Virus record (IMG/VR): IMGVR_UViG_3300037424_000564
Span: 96,001-160,000 of that record
DNA from: a virus
Lineage: Duplodnaviria > Caudoviricetes
DNA length: 64,000 nt
Strand: one strand, 5' to 3'
Shown: positions 6,224-13,332 of the stretch, piece after piece
Layout: every line of letters starts with the position of its first letter
Position numbering within the stretch: position 1 is the first letter of the stretch
Made by a program: the position numbers and the translations under genes
Notes under the pieces: model-generated
Seen by the model: the letters and a program-made list of their open reading frames with translations, nothing else
Databases searched by the model: none
Told to the model about the DNA's origin: nothing

Positions 6224-6270
6224 AAATCCTCCTTTCTAGAAGTATAACCCAGAAAGGAGGATTTTGTCAA
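6224..6270 (-). promoter_or_regulatory. sigma70 promoter inside a 14-bp RBS-occluding inverted repeat
   Basis: TTGACA-18-TATACT; arms 6224-6237 and 6251-6264, 3' arm contains AGGAGG. Confidence 0.75.
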
Positions 6271-6287: not shown

Positions 6288-7670
6288 TTACTGAATACCT
6301 TTTTCAGTGTTTACTATGACTTCTTCAAAAGTGATAGTTCTAACAATAGGAATATTATTATAATCATCAAGTTTGAATACTTCTTTGAGAGCAATAACTT
6401 CATTACCTACTTCATCTAGTCTACAAGTAGTAAGACCTTCGTTAGTTTCAATGAGAGTTAATCTACCTTTTTTGCTATTTTTACCGGGAGCAATTTTGAA
6501 CACATCTTGCCATTCTCCATCAATAAGAATAGCACAACATTTCATTGCAAATCCAAAGGTATCACGGTTAGAATGTTGTAGTAGTGCGCCACCCATACCA
6601 AATCCAACATTATCAGCAGCAAATCCTTTCCATTTGAGAAGAGATAGGATTTCTTCAATAGAATCACGATTGATTCCATCGCCTTGAATAACTCTAACAC
6701 AACTAGGAAGAACTTTATATCCTTTGCTATTAATAGTGAAACCAAAATGTTTCATTAGGATTTCAACACAACGAGCAACGGTTTGTGCTGGATCACCAGA
6801 GTCAGGACGAATGACCAGAGTGCCGCCCATATTAATTACTTCTTCTTTTAGTTCAGTTCCCCACATTTCACAGGCATTGAAAATATTGTAACTATCAGAT
6901 ACACATGCTACAATATTCCCCGGCCCACCATATTGCTGAAGCATATTGCGATATGCTTCGACTTCTTTATCCTGACCCCAAGATGTGATTGTGCTGTGTT
7001 CAGATGCTGGAATGCTAAAACCAGCCATAGCACAATTATAGTATTCATTAGCATACAGAATACCTTCAACAGTATCACTTCCCATGAAGTTGACAAGGTG
7101 AGCAGATCCACCAATTCCAGCAGATTCACTAGAACTTACGCCCCTTGCACCAAAATCATGAAGTTTGAACATAACTTGATCTTGATCATCAGAAGTCAGT
7201 TCCAGATACTTCTTGATTGTTTGCTTACAATCATAGGAAATAGTGGCAACAGAAGAAGGATACCAAATAGCACGTAGTAGTGCAGTTTCAAGGAAACTAG
7301 CAATCCAGAAACATTTTGGATCTGTACATTCGATAGTAAGGAGGACATTACTATTACGAAGAACAGTACCTTCTGGTACAGCTTTGATAATTACTGGCAT
7401 AAAGCCATTATATGTTTTAAGAATATATTCCCATCCTTCACGATTGAAGGGTTCCCCATGACTAGCAAAAAAGATAGCGGCTTGATCAATATCTTTTTGC
7501 GTGATGGGGTTTAGAAGATGGTCTTTGATGAAAATCTGAAGACCATAAAATAGTAGATGACTTCCGGCTCTTGCCTCAATATAAGACATCATTCCTTGGG
7601 TCTTAGGAGGGTATTGTTTCCAGTGACTACTTTTATAGCTATCACTTTTGAGAATTAGATTGTTGACCAT
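6288..7670 (-). CDS. nadV: Nicotinamide phosphoribosyltransferase
   Basis: LKSDSYKSSH, LHDFGARG, PASEHS, CVSDSY, IRPDSGD, VIQGDGI, FGMGGALLQ. Confidence 0.96.
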   Translation of the reverse strand: MVNNLILKSDSYKSSHWKQYPPKTQGMMSYIEARAGSHLLFYGLQIFIKDHLLNPITQKDIDQAAIFFASHGEPFNREGWEYILKTYNGFMPVIIKAVPEGTVLRNSNVLLTIECTDPKCFWIASFLETALLRAIWYPSSVATISYDCKQTIKKYLELTSDDQDQVMFKLHDFGARGVSSSESAGIGGSAHLVNFMGSDTVEGILYANEYYNCAMAGFSIPASEHSTITSWGQDKEVEAYRNMLQQYGGPGNIVACVSDSYNIFNACEMWGTELKEEVINMGGTLVIRPDSGDPAQTVARCVEILMKHFGFTINSKGYKVLPSCVRVIQGDGINRDSIEEILSLLKWKGFAADNVGFGMGGALLQHSNRDTFGFAMKCCAILIDGEWQDVFKIAPGKNSKKGRLTLIETNEGLTTCRLDEVGNEVIALKEVFKLDDYNNIPIVRTITFEEVIVNTEKGIQ

Positions 7671-7814
7671 TTAAATGCACTCCTTTTTATTGTCTTCTTC
7701 AACAATTAGGCTAAGTTGGCCGCAAGCAGCACCTGCATTGATTTCAGCCTCAGTAGCAATAGCAGTAGCAAAATCGAAACCAGCTTCTTTGAGTTGTTCT
7801 TGTACAGTTTTCAT
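7671..7814 (-). CDS. 47-aa peptide corresponding to the RlmN/Cfr C-terminal segment with the catalytic cysteine
   Basis: Own translation: MKTVQEQLKEAGFDFATAIATEAEINAGAACGQLSLIVEEDNKKECI; AAAGGAAG RBS; stop abuts nadV ATG; absent from the ORF track. Confidence 0.85.
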   Translation of the reverse strand: MKTVQEQLKEAGFDFATAIATEAEINAGAACGQLSLIVEEDNKKECI

Positions 7815-7888
7815 AGTATCACTTCCTTTCTGTTATAGGATTATTCCCAATAGATTGTATATCTAAATATTTCCTTCTGATCTTTGCA

Positions 7889-8083
7889 TCAATTATGGTC
7901 TACTACCTTAATGAAGATAGTTTTAGTGAAGGACTGTTGACCGTTAGGATCAACATATCTTGGTTGATGAATCGCAGTAAACTCATATGTTCCATCAACC
8001 AAAGCAACGAATTCGACAATAAGATCCCGGTTATCAACCCTAAATTGATCACATACCATCTGAGCAACAACTGAGTTTTTCAT
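7889..8083 (-). CDS. Hypothetical protein
   Basis: AAGGAG RBS, directly under promoter 8102-8130. Confidence 0.65.
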   Translation of the reverse strand: MKNSVVAQMVCDQFRVDNRDLIVEFVALVDGTYEFTAIHQPRYVDPNGQQSFTKTIFIKVVDHN

Positions 8084-8101
8084 ATATCTCCTTGTTTAAA
8101 T

Positions 8102-8130
8102 AGAATACGATAATTTTAGTTTTATGTCAA
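8102..8130 (-). promoter_or_regulatory. sigma70-type early promoter
   Basis: TTGACA-17-TATTCT. Confidence 0.75.
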
Positions 8131-8149
8131 TTAAAAAATTCAATTCCAT

Positions 8150-9061
8150 TTATATGATAATTTCTCCACCAAATCCAGTTCGAAGGTAGGAACCATCAAA
8201 CACCAAGTTTGATTCATTTCCTTTAGCAAAATCACTATTATATCTAGCATAAATTTTAACTAAACTGTCACCATCTTTAGGATTGAAGACATAGTTTCTG
8301 CATTCACAACTACCTTTATTATTCCATGTTTGGTAGTGTAAGATATTTTCTTTATTGGATAAATCAATATCACGAAAGTCAATATGATTATCAGTACAAT
8401 AATCATTAACTTTCATTAGTGTAACAAATCCAACATCACGAACACCGACAGATGCAGACCATTCCAGATATTTACACATTTCTTCATAAGAGTCAATATA
8501 ACCTTTAACTAAATTACAAGAAAAATGAATTTTGTGTTTATTGTGAAGATTATTCAATTCATTATTTGTGGGAATATTAATGAACGAATTGATGCCAAAT
8601 ATTTCTGAATTTTTACGTTCATTATAATGATGTCGGGACAAAGCAACACTATCAATTTCATCCATATCCATTAATTCACTAATATTGTAACCATTAGTAT
8701 TAGCCACAATAAATGATTTTGGACTAACTTCTTTTGTTTTGATTAGGATAGATTTGAAGTTATCAATATCCAGAGAAAGTTCACCACCAGTAAAACTGAT
8801 TTTATTGATGATAATTTTTTTCTGTAATTCTGACATAACATAATAAAATTTATGCAAATCAAATTCTGTATTTTCCTGACTACAAAACTCACAGAATTTA
8901 CATTTCGCCTGACACTTTTCAGTTACTTTTACGTAGATATTTACATAAGGATCTTTGACATGCCATAGATCATTGCAAAGATTCTTCTGACAATGATAAT
9001 CCTTTGTCATGATTGTTTTATTAAAAATATCGATTTTCATAATAGTCCTCTTAATTAACAA
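8150..9061 (-). CDS. Radical SAM enzyme (likely start 9040)
   Basis: CQAKCKFC (CxxxCxxC), ISFTGGE, NTNG, ALSRHH. Confidence 0.9.
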   Translation of the reverse strand: MLIKRTIMKIDIFNKTIMTKDYHCQKNLCNDLWHVKDPYVNIYVKVTEKCQAKCKFCEFCSQENTEFDLHKFYYVMSELQKKIIINKISFTGGELSLDIDNFKSILIKTKEVSPKSFIVANTNGYNISELMDMDEIDSVALSRHHYNERKNSEIFGINSFINIPTNNELNNLHNKHKIHFSCNLVKGYIDSYEEMCKYLEWSASVGVRDVGFVTLMKVNDYCTDNHIDFRDIDLSNKENILHYQTWNNKGSCECRNYVFNPKDGDSLVKIYARYNSDFAKGNESNLVFDGSYLRTGFGGEIII

Positions 9062-9342
9062 CCACCAGTTCTACTTCCAGAATATCCTCTAGAACAAGGA
9101 TCTACGGTAGTAGGTTTGTTCTTGGTTTTTACATTTGATGCATCTTGCTCTACTTTGACGTGAAGAACAATATCAAACATAGCAAATACAATATTTAGAG
9201 CATCTTTAGAAATAATTGTAGACATTTCAGTAGATGTACAGATATCCATAAAAAGATCATTGATTTTTGTTGTCGGAACACCAGAGGCAACAATTTTCTT
9301 ACGCATACCGATTAGGAATAGAACTTCATCTTTAAGTGCCAT
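9055..9342 (-). CDS. Hypothetical protein with Cys/Gly/Ser-rich C-terminal tail
   Basis: Ends DPCSRGYSGSRTGGC; AAGGAG RBS; abuts the radical SAM gene. Confidence 0.65.
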   Translation of the reverse strand: MALKDEVLFLIGMRKKIVASGVPTTKINDLFMDICTSTEMSTIISKDALNIVFAMFDIVLHVKVEQDASNVKTKNKPTTVDPCSRGYSGSRTGGC

Positions 9343-9429
9343 GATTTGTCTCCTTTTGATTATAAAATTCTTCTCTATTAATTTTTTCAGACTTCCACAC
9401 TTTATTTGTTTCTCTAAGACCTTTTGGAA

Positions 9430-9711
9430 TCATAATAACTCTTCTTTCTTTTTAAAATATTGTTCCTTTGTAAGAATTATACAATTCCACCCTTTATAAG
9501 ATTCTCTTAATCCCTTTGCTACATTTTTTAAAAATTGTGGTGTTTTAATTCCTAATTCTTTACATTTTTTAACAAAATCACCACAAAAAATTATTTCTTC
9601 ACCAGTAGGAGTTATTATAATATAATAACCTACATTATTAGCACTTTCACCTATAATCCCTTTATGCGAATTGCTCATTTTTTTCTTTACATCATCTGAT
9701 AACTTTTTCAA
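9430..9711 (-). pseudogene. Homing endonuclease remnant (NUMOD3-type DNA-binding region only)
   Basis: LSDDVKKKMSNSHKG and YIIITPTGEEI motifs; no nuclease domain; TTG start. Confidence 0.6.
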
Positions 9712-9713
9712 TA

Positions 9714-10496
9714 TCAGACTAGATTATTACCTTTTATAATCCCTTCACCTAAGTTATTAGATTCACTAATAGAATTTAAATTTATAGGGCTAATTTTTAT
9801 GAAAAAATAATCAGGATCAAAATATTTACGAAGTTTATTTATATCGAAATCACAGTAATCAACGAGAGTTAAATTAACTGTAGTTTTGAGATTACTCTTA
9901 GTACGAATCTGGCCGAGTTCTTCAATACTCATGAGATTATTGATAGGAATCAATTCATGCCGCCGATCTTCATCAAGAGAGTGAAGACTGATTTGAAGGG
10001 TAATATTTCCTTCAATCCAAGAGAAGTCAGAATCACGAATACCAACAGTAGAAACGTAGTGGTGAACATTAGGATATGCTTCTGAAAGTTGATTAATAGC
10101 ATATTTTACATTTTCGATATTTAGAAATGGTTCACCCATTCGTGTCCAGTTAATTTTGAATTCTTCCGAATATGAAGGATGAATATGAGAGTTTTTATCA
10201 ACAACAAAAAAAACTTGATCAAACATTTCATTTGGAGTAAGATTTCTCCAACCTTTCATTTGACCAGTTGCACAGAATTTGCAGCCAACAGGACAACCAC
10301 TCATAGTCGAAACACCAACCATCCAACGTTCAGACCGACTTCCGATATCTTTGGAGTAAAGAGCATTAGTATTATTAGGGCAGTTCTTAGTATAGAATGG
10401 AAGAAATGTATCAGTAGTTTCAATCAACATCCCATCTTCAAGTTGAAGACAATGAACAGATCCATTAGTAAATTTACGATTACGAAGTTCTTTCAT
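9714..10496 (-). CDS. RlmN/Cfr-like radical SAM enzyme, C-terminally truncated
   Basis: IET, VSTMSGCPVGCKFCATG, RNL, MGEPFLN, LQISLHS; ends GIIKGNNLV without AACGQL. Confidence 0.9.
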   Translation of the reverse strand: MKELRNRKFTNGSVHCLQLEDGMLIETTDTFLPFYTKNCPNNTNALYSKDIGSRSERWMVGVSTMSGCPVGCKFCATGQMKGWRNLTPNEMFDQVFFVVDKNSHIHPSYSEEFKINWTRMGEPFLNIENVKYAINQLSEAYPNVHHYVSTVGIRDSDFSWIEGNITLQISLHSLDEDRRHELIPINNLMSIEELGQIRTKSNLKTTVNLTLVDYCDFDINKLRKYFDPDYFFIKISPINLNSISESNNLGEGIIKGNNLV

Positions 10497-10507
10497 TTGA
10501 TATACTC

Positions 10508-10792
10508 CTATTTAATAACCGAACAGTTGTCAATTCTCCAAGAGCAAACACCGTCAGTCACTCGAACTTTACTGTTTTTCTCACCAGAGGCATCAACACC
10601 AACAGAAGTGATCTTGACAACTTTATAATCGCAGTCACAATAGCTAAAAACGAGGACTAAATCACCTTTCTTTATGGTCATATCTTCCATAATGAATTCA
10701 CCAATTACGGAGAAATCTCTCTCGCTGTGATATTTCACGAAGTTATGATTAATTTTAGATGCTTCCTCTTTAGTGATAGTTCCGAGTTCCAT
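10508..10792 (-). CDS. Hypothetical protein
   Basis: AGGAGG RBS, dedicated promoter. Confidence 0.7.
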   Translation of the reverse strand: MELGTITKEEASKINHNFVKYHSERDFSVIGEFIMEDMTIKKGDLVLVFSYCDCDYKVVKITSVGVDASGEKNSKVRVTDGVCSWRIDNCSVIK

Positions 10793-10847
10793 AAATCCTC
10801 CTGTCGTTAGGTGAGTTAACTATACGACAGGAGGATTTAATTGTCAA
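10792..10847 (-). promoter_or_regulatory. sigma70 promoter inside a 16-bp RBS-occluding inverted repeat
   Basis: TTGACA-17-TATAGT; perfect arms 10792-10807 and 10824-10839. Confidence 0.8.
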
Positions 10848-10864
10848 TTTAAAAATATGAATAA

Positions 10865-11329
10865 TTATCTGGCGAGTGGTGCTGATTTGATTGTATGAAT
10901 TAGTTTGAATGTATCAGTATCCTCGCTATCCTTATTATAAATAATTTCTTTGCCATTTTCATTATCATATATATATGTTTCATTTAGTCTATCATACTTT
11001 ACATCATAAATCTCTTTTGGAAGAATAATACCAACAGCAGTCAATGCTCCATCAAGAGAATCATCATCTTCTCTAAAATAAGCCCAAGGATATTTTGCAG
11101 TAGAAAATAATAATCTTAGCTCACGTAGATCTTTATTATTACCACCATTACAAACAATCATAGTTTTATGATTTTCTAACCAATCAAAATACATCAAAAT
11201 AGGTTTCGAATATATGGCAGACTGAATATTTTTTCCATGTGAAATAGCAAGTTCACCAAGAACATGAGCAGATTGGATTCCTTGTTGGATAGATGAAAGA
11301 TAATAATTCACGAAAGTATATAGTCTCAT
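10865..11329 (-). CDS. Pth2-like peptidyl-tRNA hydrolase fold protein
   Basis: GIQSAHV, KTMIVCNGG, YFREDD...GALTAVGIILP. Confidence 0.6.
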   Translation of the reverse strand: MRLYTFVNYYLSSIQQGIQSAHVLGELAISHGKNIQSAIYSKPILMYFDWLENHKTMIVCNGGNNKDLRELRLLFSTAKYPWAYFREDDDSLDGALTAVGIILPKEIYDVKYDRLNETYIYDNENGKEIIYNKDSEDTDTFKLIHTIKSAPLAR

Positions 11330-12291: not shown

Positions 12292-13332
12292 TTAAATACC
12301 CAACATATCCTTAATGATAAAATAATGGTCTTCAAACATATTTTCAGCAGTTAGTTCAGAAATAGGCAACCATACTGCTTTAGCCGCATCATCAGATCCT
12401 TTGATACGTGCTTTGATATTACTAGGAGGCAATTCAATTAAAAAAGCATGAGTTAGAATTCTTCCTCTTGTAGATCTATATGGATCGTCATACACACCTT
12501 TTTTTGTGATATATTTGCGAAGAATTGAAACTGGAATTTTGATCTTAGTTTCTTCATTCAATTCTCGAAGCATTCCATCTTCAAGTTGTTCATCTGTATC
12601 TAGAAATCCACCCGGCATTGCCCAAAGACCTTTTCCCGGTACATTCTTTCGTTGAATTAGAAGAATATGATCATTTTGAGTAACAATAGCATCAGTAGTT
12701 ATAAAATTACAAGGATATGGTGCAGATTCCCAAGCTTTCTTGTATTTTTTAATATAATCATGTTCTTCTTTGAGAATAAGCCAATTAGAATCAAGCATTC
12801 TAAATCTTCCCATAGTTTCTAACACATTTATTGGAACAACGCCATATAATTCAAAAAGTCTATCATGGGAATCAAAAAGAATTTCTCTGATATCAGTTGA
12901 GTGAATATGATTAATGGTTTCATCGAACCCAACTGGTTCAATATAATCCCAATCTTTGAAAAAATCAATATAAAAACTAGTTTTATCATTTTTGTTTCCA
13001 GTGATGCAAATAGAAACATCATCAGGATCATTACCATCTTGTTGAATCATAGAATCAACAATGCTTTGAGTATTCATTACCCAACGCGAATTCTCTTTAA
13101 TATCTATAAGAGATCCAAACATAATTCTATCGGAATTATATGTTTTACTAATCATTGCTTCACGATAATTAATATCGAATGGATTTTTTGAACTTAAAGG
13201 TCTATTTGCAGATCCAAATAGAACAATAACTTTATCTGCTACATTCAACAGATTATCAATGATTGCTTTGTGATTATTGTGAAACCCCTGAAATCGTCCG
13301 ATAATTATACCATATTGATATTTCTTTGACAT
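12292..13332 (-). CDS. nadM: Bifunctional NMN adenylyltransferase / Nudix ADP-ribose pyrophosphatase
   Basis: IGRFQGFHNNH, GSANR...NPF, STDIRE, Nudix box GGFLDTDEQLEDGMLRELNEET. Confidence 0.95.
   Translation of the reverse strand: MSKKYQYGIIIGRFQGFHNNHKAIIDNLLNVADKVIVLFGSANRPLSSKNPFDINYREAMISKTYNSDRIMFGSLIDIKENSRWVMNTQSIVDSMIQQDGNDPDDVSICITGNKNDKTSFYIDFFKDWDYIEPVGFDETINHIHSTDIREILFDSHDRLFELYGVVPINVLETMGRFRMLDSNWLILKEEHDYIKKYKKAWESAPYPCNFITTDAIVTQNDHILLIQRKNVPGKGLWAMPGGFLDTDEQLEDGMLRELNEETKIKIPVSILRKYITKKGVYDDPYRSTRGRILTHAFLIELPPSNIKARIKGSDDAAKAVWLPISELTAENMFEDHYFIIKDMLGI

Follow-up and report, generated by a model that had tools for sequence, protein, structure and literature searches.

Can an enzyme of the RlmN/Cfr type work when the cysteine that carries its methyl group sits on a separate peptide and the cysteine that resolves its covalent intermediate is a glycine? 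This question is raised by a 64,000-nucleotide stretch of viral DNA (hereafter the window; positions 96,001 to 160,000 of IMG/VR record IMGVR_UViG_3300037424_000564, Caudoviricetes), the source record being the complete 205,056-bp genome of a T4-like phage from a sediment metagenome. Two genes on the minus strand are at issue: L (9714–10496(-)), which encodes a 260-aa RlmN/Cfr-like radical S-adenosylmethionine (SAM) core recognised from sequence searches and predicted fold, and S (7671–7814(-)), which encodes a 47-aa peptide recognised by homology to the C-terminal segment of RlmN-like enzymes. The hallmark of class A radical SAM methylases is a pair of conserved cysteines within one chain, and when the resolving one is replaced, as in RlmN C118A and the equivalent Cfr mutant, the enzyme remains covalently bound to its RNA (PMC9692996, PMC5130265). 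A preliminary description of the locus had proposed that L and S form a two-chain enzyme which, for want of the resolving cysteine, might leave the peptide attached to an RNA or nucleotide. From the analysis reported here we consider it probable that L and S are subunits of one conserved phage enzyme from a Cys118-less sister clade of RlmN/Cfr, a two-piece enzyme that catalytically transfers methyl or methylene groups. The module is small (260 + 47 aa) and is found in crAss-like gut, T4-like and FelixO1-like phages. It belongs to a set of thousands of phage genes, together with a larger cellular sister clade, that lack the resolving cysteine, and in the phage branch the methyl-carrier cysteine has moved to a free peptide of ~40 residues.

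A radical SAM core related to RlmN and Cfr

Among solved structures, a phmmer search with L matched only RlmN (E 4e-11) and Cfr (E 5e-9). RlmN is the C2-methyltransferase of 23S rRNA A2503 and tRNA A37 (PDB 3RFA, 5HR7, 6FZ6), and Cfr is represented by PDB 9P0P. L carries the motifs LIETTD, CPVGCKFC, WRNLT, RMGEPF and QISLHS and terminates in GIIKGNNLV. Its cluster cysteines C68, C72 and C75 (CX3CX2C) were invariant in 40 homologues, and PF04055 matched at 31.2 bits, above the cut-off of 29.5 bits. With the NCBIfam RlmN model TIGR00048, L scored 73.8 bits (E 1e-20), far under the 290-bit cut-off, and it scored 54–59 bits with Cfr models, whose curated cut-offs of 468–550 bits it did not reach. 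The AlphaFold model of L (predicted local distance difference test score, pLDDT, 87.8) was compared with the PDB using Foldseek, and the 11 best matches were all RlmN or Cfr (E 3e-13 to 8e-7, template modelling score 0.57–0.66). Judged by its sequence and predicted fold, L is a relative of RlmN and Cfr that lies outside the curated family.

L and S together share with RlmN and Cfr the CX3CX2C cluster, the MGEP and SLH motifs, the overall fold and the xACGQL methyl-carrier loop. Unlike RlmN and Cfr, they have the cysteine loop, with the helix and strand that precede it, on a separate polypeptide, and L combines an invariant glycine at the resolving Cys118 with the absence of the N-terminal RlmN_N domain. 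The resolving position (C118 in RlmN, C105 in Cfr) lies seven residues before the first cluster cysteine; alignments place Gly61 of L there (ERWMVGVSTMSGC vs DRTTVCVSCQVGC), as the preliminary description had claimed. The helix-hairpin-helix-like RlmN_N domain (PF21016) gave no match in L, which starts at about RlmN residue 85, and the Cys355 loop is not present in the L chain. In alignments of homologues, L had no conserved cysteine outside the cluster and S had only Cys31. L further differs from RlmN in being phage-encoded and in belonging to a distinct clade (support 100/99; 73.8 vs 290 bits). The isoelectric point (pI) and net charge were considered as a sign of RNA binding and were uninformative (pI 6.5 for L, 6.6 for E. 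coli RlmN).

The methyl-carrier cysteine loop is encoded in trans

S consists of 47 residues (MKTVQEQLKEAGFDFATAIATEAEINAGAACGQLSLIVEEDNKKECI) and is encoded by a single-copy gene in the 205-kb genome. The gene has its own ribosome-binding site, a Shine-Dalgarno-like AAAGGAAGTG at 7820–7829(-), 5 nt upstream of its ATG, and its stop codon abuts the start codon of nadV (TAAATG), the gene for nicotinamide phosphoribosyltransferase (6288–7670(-)). The open reading frames (ORFs), the motifs of L, its stop after GIIKGNNLV, the ribosome-binding site of S and the coupling to nadV, all of which had been reported before, were borne out on the sequence.

When L and S were aligned together with E. coli RlmN using MAFFT, the two were colinear with RlmN residues ~85–365, and the break between them mapped just before '...DRFSKVLMSYGF..DIDAACGQL' of RlmN. 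The methyl-carrier cysteine motif (RlmN C355, Cfr C338) is found in trans on S, as AACGQL. S gave no significant match, alone or as a profile, in searches of PDB, Pfam, NCBIfam and PHROGs; as it is too short to attain significance in a database, its homology was shown through single-chain relatives. BLASTP aligned S with residues 283–315 of the 347 residues of protein P0223 (E 7e-8), and hhalign aligned it with positions 267–305 of a 323-aa single-chain family (probability 91.6%, E 8e-7). These alignments make S the homologue of the segment that, in RlmN-like enzymes, comprises the last helix and strand together with the Cys355 loop; the colinear alignment and the single-chain matches thus agree with the earlier claim that S supplies the missing RlmN C-terminus, including the equivalent of Cys355.

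S-type polypeptides are 38–79 aa long across the system and have ten invariant columns (G12, A18, A20, T21, E24, A30, C31, G32, Q33 and L34). The median proportion of synonymous differences between S genes (pS) was 0.83, which is saturated, and that of nonsynonymous differences (pN) was 0.24; the ratio of nonsynonymous to synonymous rates (dN/dS) was ~0.2 in the four unsaturated pairs. S is under purifying selection.

The split is conserved among phages

A search of a collection of 5.8 billion proteins returned 2163 homologues of L at E<1e-5. The best 120 of these were 257–283 aa long, and every one had glycine at position 118 and no CGQ in the same chain (120/120 and 0/120, respectively). Separate genes were annotated for 44 S peptides. 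We also compared 86 other phage or viral loci, which represent 21 lineages at 90% L identity and include crAss-like, Moorella and FelixO1-like phages. No locus had L fused to S (0/86), glycine was found at position 118 throughout (86/86), and S lay downstream of L on the same strand in all but two (84/86). Moorella phage MTATph1, the crAss-like Kehishuvirus 'tikkala' and Pectobacterium phage Wc4, for example, have an L of 35–64% identity followed by a small S gene. In 14 of the 21 lineages L and S are separated by 2–59 nt, in varying frames, which excludes fusion by read-through or frameshifting. The split of L and S is conserved and does not reflect decay.

One metagenomic homologue of L (P0170, 601 aa) contains a LAGLIDADG-type intein exactly before the third cluster cysteine (CPVRCAF, intein C...VHN, then C).

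S is predicted to complete the fold of L

The complex was modelled from L, a 4Fe-4S cluster, SAM and S, using custom alignments and with the ligands included. The interface score (interaction prediction score from aligned errors, ipSAE) was 0.79, compared with 0.00 for the best control; of the solved complexes, 58 of 80 came up to the mark set for this score, as did 2 of 110 mismatched pairs. Model runs had at least 84% of contacts in common, with a partner pLDDT of at least 68. In the model, residues 13–17 of S pair with the L strand 231–236, and the segment around Cys31 contacts L at residues 74–77 (the cluster motif) and 119–120. A structure prediction of the heterodimer had been suggested as a check in the preliminary description, and in its outcome the S strand docks onto L with the Cys31 region at the cluster motif. 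The two-chain proposal has therefore gained from the absence of fusions in the 86 loci and the best 120 homologues, from selection on S and from a complex model that passed its controls. It has also withstood what might have overturned it: the homologues are not single-chain, the peptide is not decaying, and a complex is predicted.

Loss of Cys118 is older than the split

A tree was built from 92 of 3533 representatives (50% identity, E<1e-3), E. coli RlmN included. All sequences bearing C118 were separated from a C118-less clade with support of 100/99. The C118-less sequences made up 57 of the 92 rows, most of them single-chain with xCGQ in cis. Besides the phage split proteins, the clade includes a large cellular family in which GSNCGQ is in cis and residue 118 is isoleucine, asparagine, valine or threonine. 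Its other members are single-chain proteins that have threonine at 118 and AACGQ in cis, a branch carrying a fused isochorismatase domain, and a cellular Gly-type branch that lacks the cysteine loop. Proteins of the Gly type are all without an in-chain CGQ. Because single-chain cellular enzymes lie within the C118-less clade, the loss of Cys118 predates the split.

These single-chain relatives presumably turn over, so glycine at this position does not by itself imply a permanent adduct. The earlier step from a missing resolving cysteine to a permanent adduct is weakened by this clade, most of whose Cys118-less members are single-chain and keep the cysteine loop in cis. The proposed co-occurrence of the split with the change from cysteine to glycine stood in part: glycine is present in 86/86 split loci, but Cys118 is also missing from single-chain members of the clade. 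A specific coupling of Cys118 loss to the split was rejected on the same ground, the whole clade being without Cys118.

The GSNCGQ family had at least 588 confirmed genome matches in many anaerobic bacterial and archaeal phyla, and no NCBIfam model attains its cut-off on it. Its radical SAM gene is the last gene of the operon in 50–66 of 74 loci, following genes for an isochorismatase-like cysteine hydrolase and a flavoprotein resembling thioredoxin reductase (TrxR), in that order. Members of this family include protein P0258 and those at the loci L096:3450-5972 and L097-L175. The family resembles L/S in its clade, its short N-terminus and its CGQ cysteine loop, and S aligns to its C-terminus. 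It differs from L/S in being single-chain with the loop in cis, in having isoleucine, asparagine, valine or threonine rather than glycine at 118, and in belonging to anaerobic bacteria and archaea, where it is accompanied by two conserved genes that the phage does not have. A search of the phage genome for an isochorismatase-family gene (PF00857) found none. The TrxR-like partner was considered as a source in trans of the resolving thiol, which is unlikely, as CxxC is absent from it in 68/68 cases.

Two further loci of this clade illustrate its variety. At L095:6001-7587 a 528-aa protein (P0237) has an RlmN-like core with methionine at the Cys118 position, SCGQ in cis and a C-terminal isochorismatase fusion; its gene is flanked by genes for a NifU-like protein (upstream) and an aldehyde dehydrogenase (downstream). 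At L088:2132-2971 a Gly-type protein (P0212; RKIGVSL..SGC), with 11 related representatives, has the helix and strand in cis and ends before the cysteine loop. It therefore has neither mechanistic cysteine, and its gene lies between those for pyruvate kinase and greA.

Proposed reaction and alternative explanations

In the two-piece transferase that we favour, S would complete the barrel of L by strand addition, and one SAM molecule would methylate Cys31 of S. A second SAM would then be cleaved, and the resulting 5'-deoxyadenosyl radical would abstract a hydrogen from the S-methyl group. The methylene radical would add to an sp2 carbon in an adenine-like or other heteroaromatic ring of a putative RNA or nucleotide substrate. 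Since neither chain has a second conserved cysteine outside the cluster, the adduct would have to be resolved by something other than Cys118, and such a resolution must hold for the single-chain cellular relatives as well. The product may be a methylated target or a peptide adduct. Either outcome would be informative, as it would mean a way of finishing the reaction not yet described for class A chemistry, or a peptide left covalently on its target.

Several points weigh against a catalytic transferase in two pieces. L lies far below the RlmN and Cfr cut-offs and is without the N-terminal RlmN domain, so that its chemistry may differ from that of class A. Any residue that takes over the resolving role of Cys118 is putative. 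By analogy with the resolving-cysteine mutants of RlmN and Cfr, which stay cross-linked, a persistent adduct is a real possibility (PMC9692996). L and S are never fused in the 86 loci and 120 homologues, even though a stop codon and 2–20 nt are all that would have to be lost; this hints at a need for free S, which a purely neutral gene-in-pieces history does not explain. The score of the L–S complex may owe something to single-chain RlmN structures already familiar to the model, and a further caveat is that our own alignments were used and the ligands were included in the modelling. A search for RNA sequencing runs containing the locus found none.

A persistent adduct is central to the best-surviving alternative, in which S is a consumable cross-linker, a stoichiometric co-substrate rather than a subunit: L would methylate Cys31 and attach S-CH2 to RNA, DNA or a nucleotide, and the adduct would be the product. 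Placing the cysteine loop on a separate peptide would let L release this adduct and turn over. The behaviour of RlmN C118A and its Cfr equivalent, which stay bound to RNA (PMC9692996, PMC5130265), fits such a reaction, as do the invariant glycine at 118 in the phage clade, the restriction of conserved non-cluster cysteines to Cys31 of S, and the lack of any fusion in the 86 loci and the 120 best homologues even where the genes almost touch. We nevertheless regard it as unlikely. Cys118 is absent also from hundreds of single-chain relatives (at least 588 matches) that have the cysteine loop in cis; a suicide reaction is implausible for these, and the clade therefore probably finishes the reaction in another way. 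Moreover, there is exactly one S gene per locus and genome, always downstream of L, with no sign that supply of the peptide is amplified, and nearly all conserved residues of S map to structural elements of the enzyme fold, not to a free tag. It is correspondingly doubtful that S becomes welded through a Cys-S-CH2 bridge to an adenine-like ring of host or phage RNA or of a nucleotide (for example tRNA, or a molecule of the nicotinamide adenine dinucleotide (NAD) or ADP-ribose type). If this were true, the tagging by S would amount to enzyme-catalysed conjugation of a peptide to nucleic acid, for which we know of no precedent.

A conventional RlmN or Cfr in two pieces, which would methylate host 23S rRNA A2503 or tRNA A37 at C2 or C8, seems improbable to us. 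RlmN and Cfr are indeed the closest solved and curated relatives, and genes for RtcB and RNA ligases lie near L/S in several phages. Such an enzyme would, however, have to do without Cys118, with Cys355 in trans and without the N-terminal RNA-binding domain, and L scores far under the family cut-offs and belongs to a clade separate from the C118-bearing sequences (100/99).

The pairing of a small peptide gene with a radical SAM gene, and the presence of other small-protein/radical SAM cassettes nested between L and S, recall the ribosomally synthesised and post-translationally modified peptides (RiPPs). S would in that case be the end substrate of L, altered by an S-methyl group, a methylene bridge or otherwise, and the modified peptide would itself be functional, for instance as an anti-host effector. 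This we think very unlikely, as the conserved length of S is homologous in its entirety to the C-terminal segment of single-chain relatives, S has no leader and variable-core organisation and is predicted to complete the L fold as a barrel strand, and megaphages have the nested cassettes without L/S.

Seen in the window alone, with 1.9 kb of foreign genes separating L from S, the locus might pass for a pseudogene in decay, a once single-chain gene that an insertion broke, leaving the 47-aa ORF as a remnant. This is scarcely credible given that the split is universal in the clade, that S is under purifying selection with its own ribosome-binding site, and that the genes are adjacent in most lineages.

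Insertions at the L/S junction and origin of the split

The DNA between L and S in the window begins, directly after L, with a 93-aa ORF (9430–9711(-)) that is a remnant of a GIY-YIG/NUMOD3 homing endonuclease. It was recognised by its similarity (41% identity, E 2e-17) to residues 192–267 of a 280-aa endonuclease in L011 and corresponds to the C-terminal third of that enzyme. In L011 the full-length GIY-YIG/NUMOD3 endonuclease follows L, in the same place as the remnant in the window. Next comes an inserted cassette (8150–9342), which consists of genes for a 95-aa protein with the C-terminal sequence DPCSRGYSGSRTGGC (9055–9342(-)) and a 303-aa radical SAM enzyme (8150–9061(-)). L005, L007 and L059 have the same 95-aa/303-aa cassette between their L and S genes, and cassettes of this type occur without L/S in megaphages of 640–735 kb. 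The 1.9-kb gap between L and S in the window is inserted DNA and is secondary.

The 303-aa radical SAM enzyme was rejected as a paralogue of L, their similarity being that of a generic core only (22% identity, E 1e-5), and also as part of the L/S system, as it is found without L/S in the megaphages. Cassettes of its type pair a protein of ~95–130 aa, with a C-terminal tail rich in cysteine, glycine and serine, with a radical SAM enzyme of ~300 aa (window 8150–9342(-), L177:5596-6882, L007:6801-7966), and they look like a RiPP-like or protein-modifying pair. A second cassette is inserted between L and S at L015:7780-8968 and L005:7208-9096; it encodes a radical SAM enzyme of 255–260 aa together with a 148-aa class I methyltransferase, and its presence at this junction varies among phages whose L proteins are at least 90% identical. 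Repeated attC-like hairpins bounding the cassettes were not found in the window. The varied insertions between L and S mark the junction as a recurrent insertion site.

Phage genes in pieces can arise through homing endonucleases, as in the split NrdA of Aeromonas phage Aeh1, with mobE. Plausibly, the split of L and S began as a gene in pieces of this mobile-element kind. As in the Aeh1-type examples, one enzyme is encoded by two genes whose products are translated separately and have to reassemble, L and S together are colinear with intact RlmN, and a GIY-YIG endonuclease (L011) or its remnant (window) lies at the junction. Unlike those examples, the L/S split is ancient and has become fixed in phage groups that are unrelated to each other, mostly without an endonuclease (in 14 of 21 lineages L and S have nothing between them), and one of the pieces is only ~40 residues long yet carries a catalytic residue.

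Layout of the locus

The order of genes on the minus strand is a 94-aa ORF (10508–10792(-)) directly preceding L, then L, the 93-aa endonuclease remnant, the 95-aa and 303-aa cassette genes, a 64-aa ORF (7889–8083(-)), S and nadV. The 64-aa ORF, which lies between the cassette and S, had no family match in searches of profile libraries. Promoter-like sites were seen upstream of the 94-aa ORF and L (10819–10847(-), 11/12 matches) and upstream of the 64-aa ORF, S and nadV (8102–8130(-), 10/12 matches); a 15-nt repeat is common to the latter site and to a site at 10842–10856. A terminator-like 17-bp hairpin lies 3' of nadV (6224–6264(-)), and the scan found no such hairpin between L and S on their strand. 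Sites in the promoter and terminator scan were no more numerous than in shuffled sequence, so that the promoter evidence is weak. The operon structure of the region is uncertain.

At 10792–10839, the arms of a perfect 16-bp inverted repeat enclose a loop of 16 nt. A possible regulatory hairpin, this repeat overlaps both the promoter-like site at 10847–10819(-) and the ribosome-binding site (AGGAGG) that precedes the 94-aa ORF.

Genomic neighbours

Genes within 8 kb of L/S were surveyed in 22 lineage representatives. NMN (nicotinamide mononucleotide) adenylyltransferase was encoded in 6/22 and NadV in 4/22 lineages, from at least three unrelated phage groups. An NAD salvage gene is directly adjacent to L/S in L018 and is translationally coupled in the window. 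RtcB (400–427 aa) is encoded near L/S in three lineages (L012, L037 and L059), and RNA ligases in L007 (8519-10512) and L010. Because L/S is often found among genes for NAD salvage and RNA repair, it may act in phage–host conflict. Cellular relatives are paired with or fused to a hydrolase of the isochorismatase family, which is the nicotinamidase family, although the match here is not specific. As a weak indication, these neighbours would suit a substrate that is RNA, a nucleotide or related to NAD, with L/S placed in a gene island of accessory or counter-defence function. Literature searches found no publication on a phage-encoded or split RlmN/Cfr-like enzyme, and nothing relevant on radical SAM enzymes of crAss-like phages or Kehishuvirus or on methylcysteine.

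In the window itself, the NAD salvage pair flanks L/S, with nadV (6288–7670(-)) on one side and a gene for a 346-aa NMN adenylyltransferase-Nudix protein (12292–13332(-)) on the other. In several phages unrelated to one another, a gene for an RtcB-type or ATP-dependent RNA ligase is found within the few kb that follow L/S downstream, and a 154-aa 'hydrolase' (phrog_3668, 10865–11329) precedes L both in the window and in L005.

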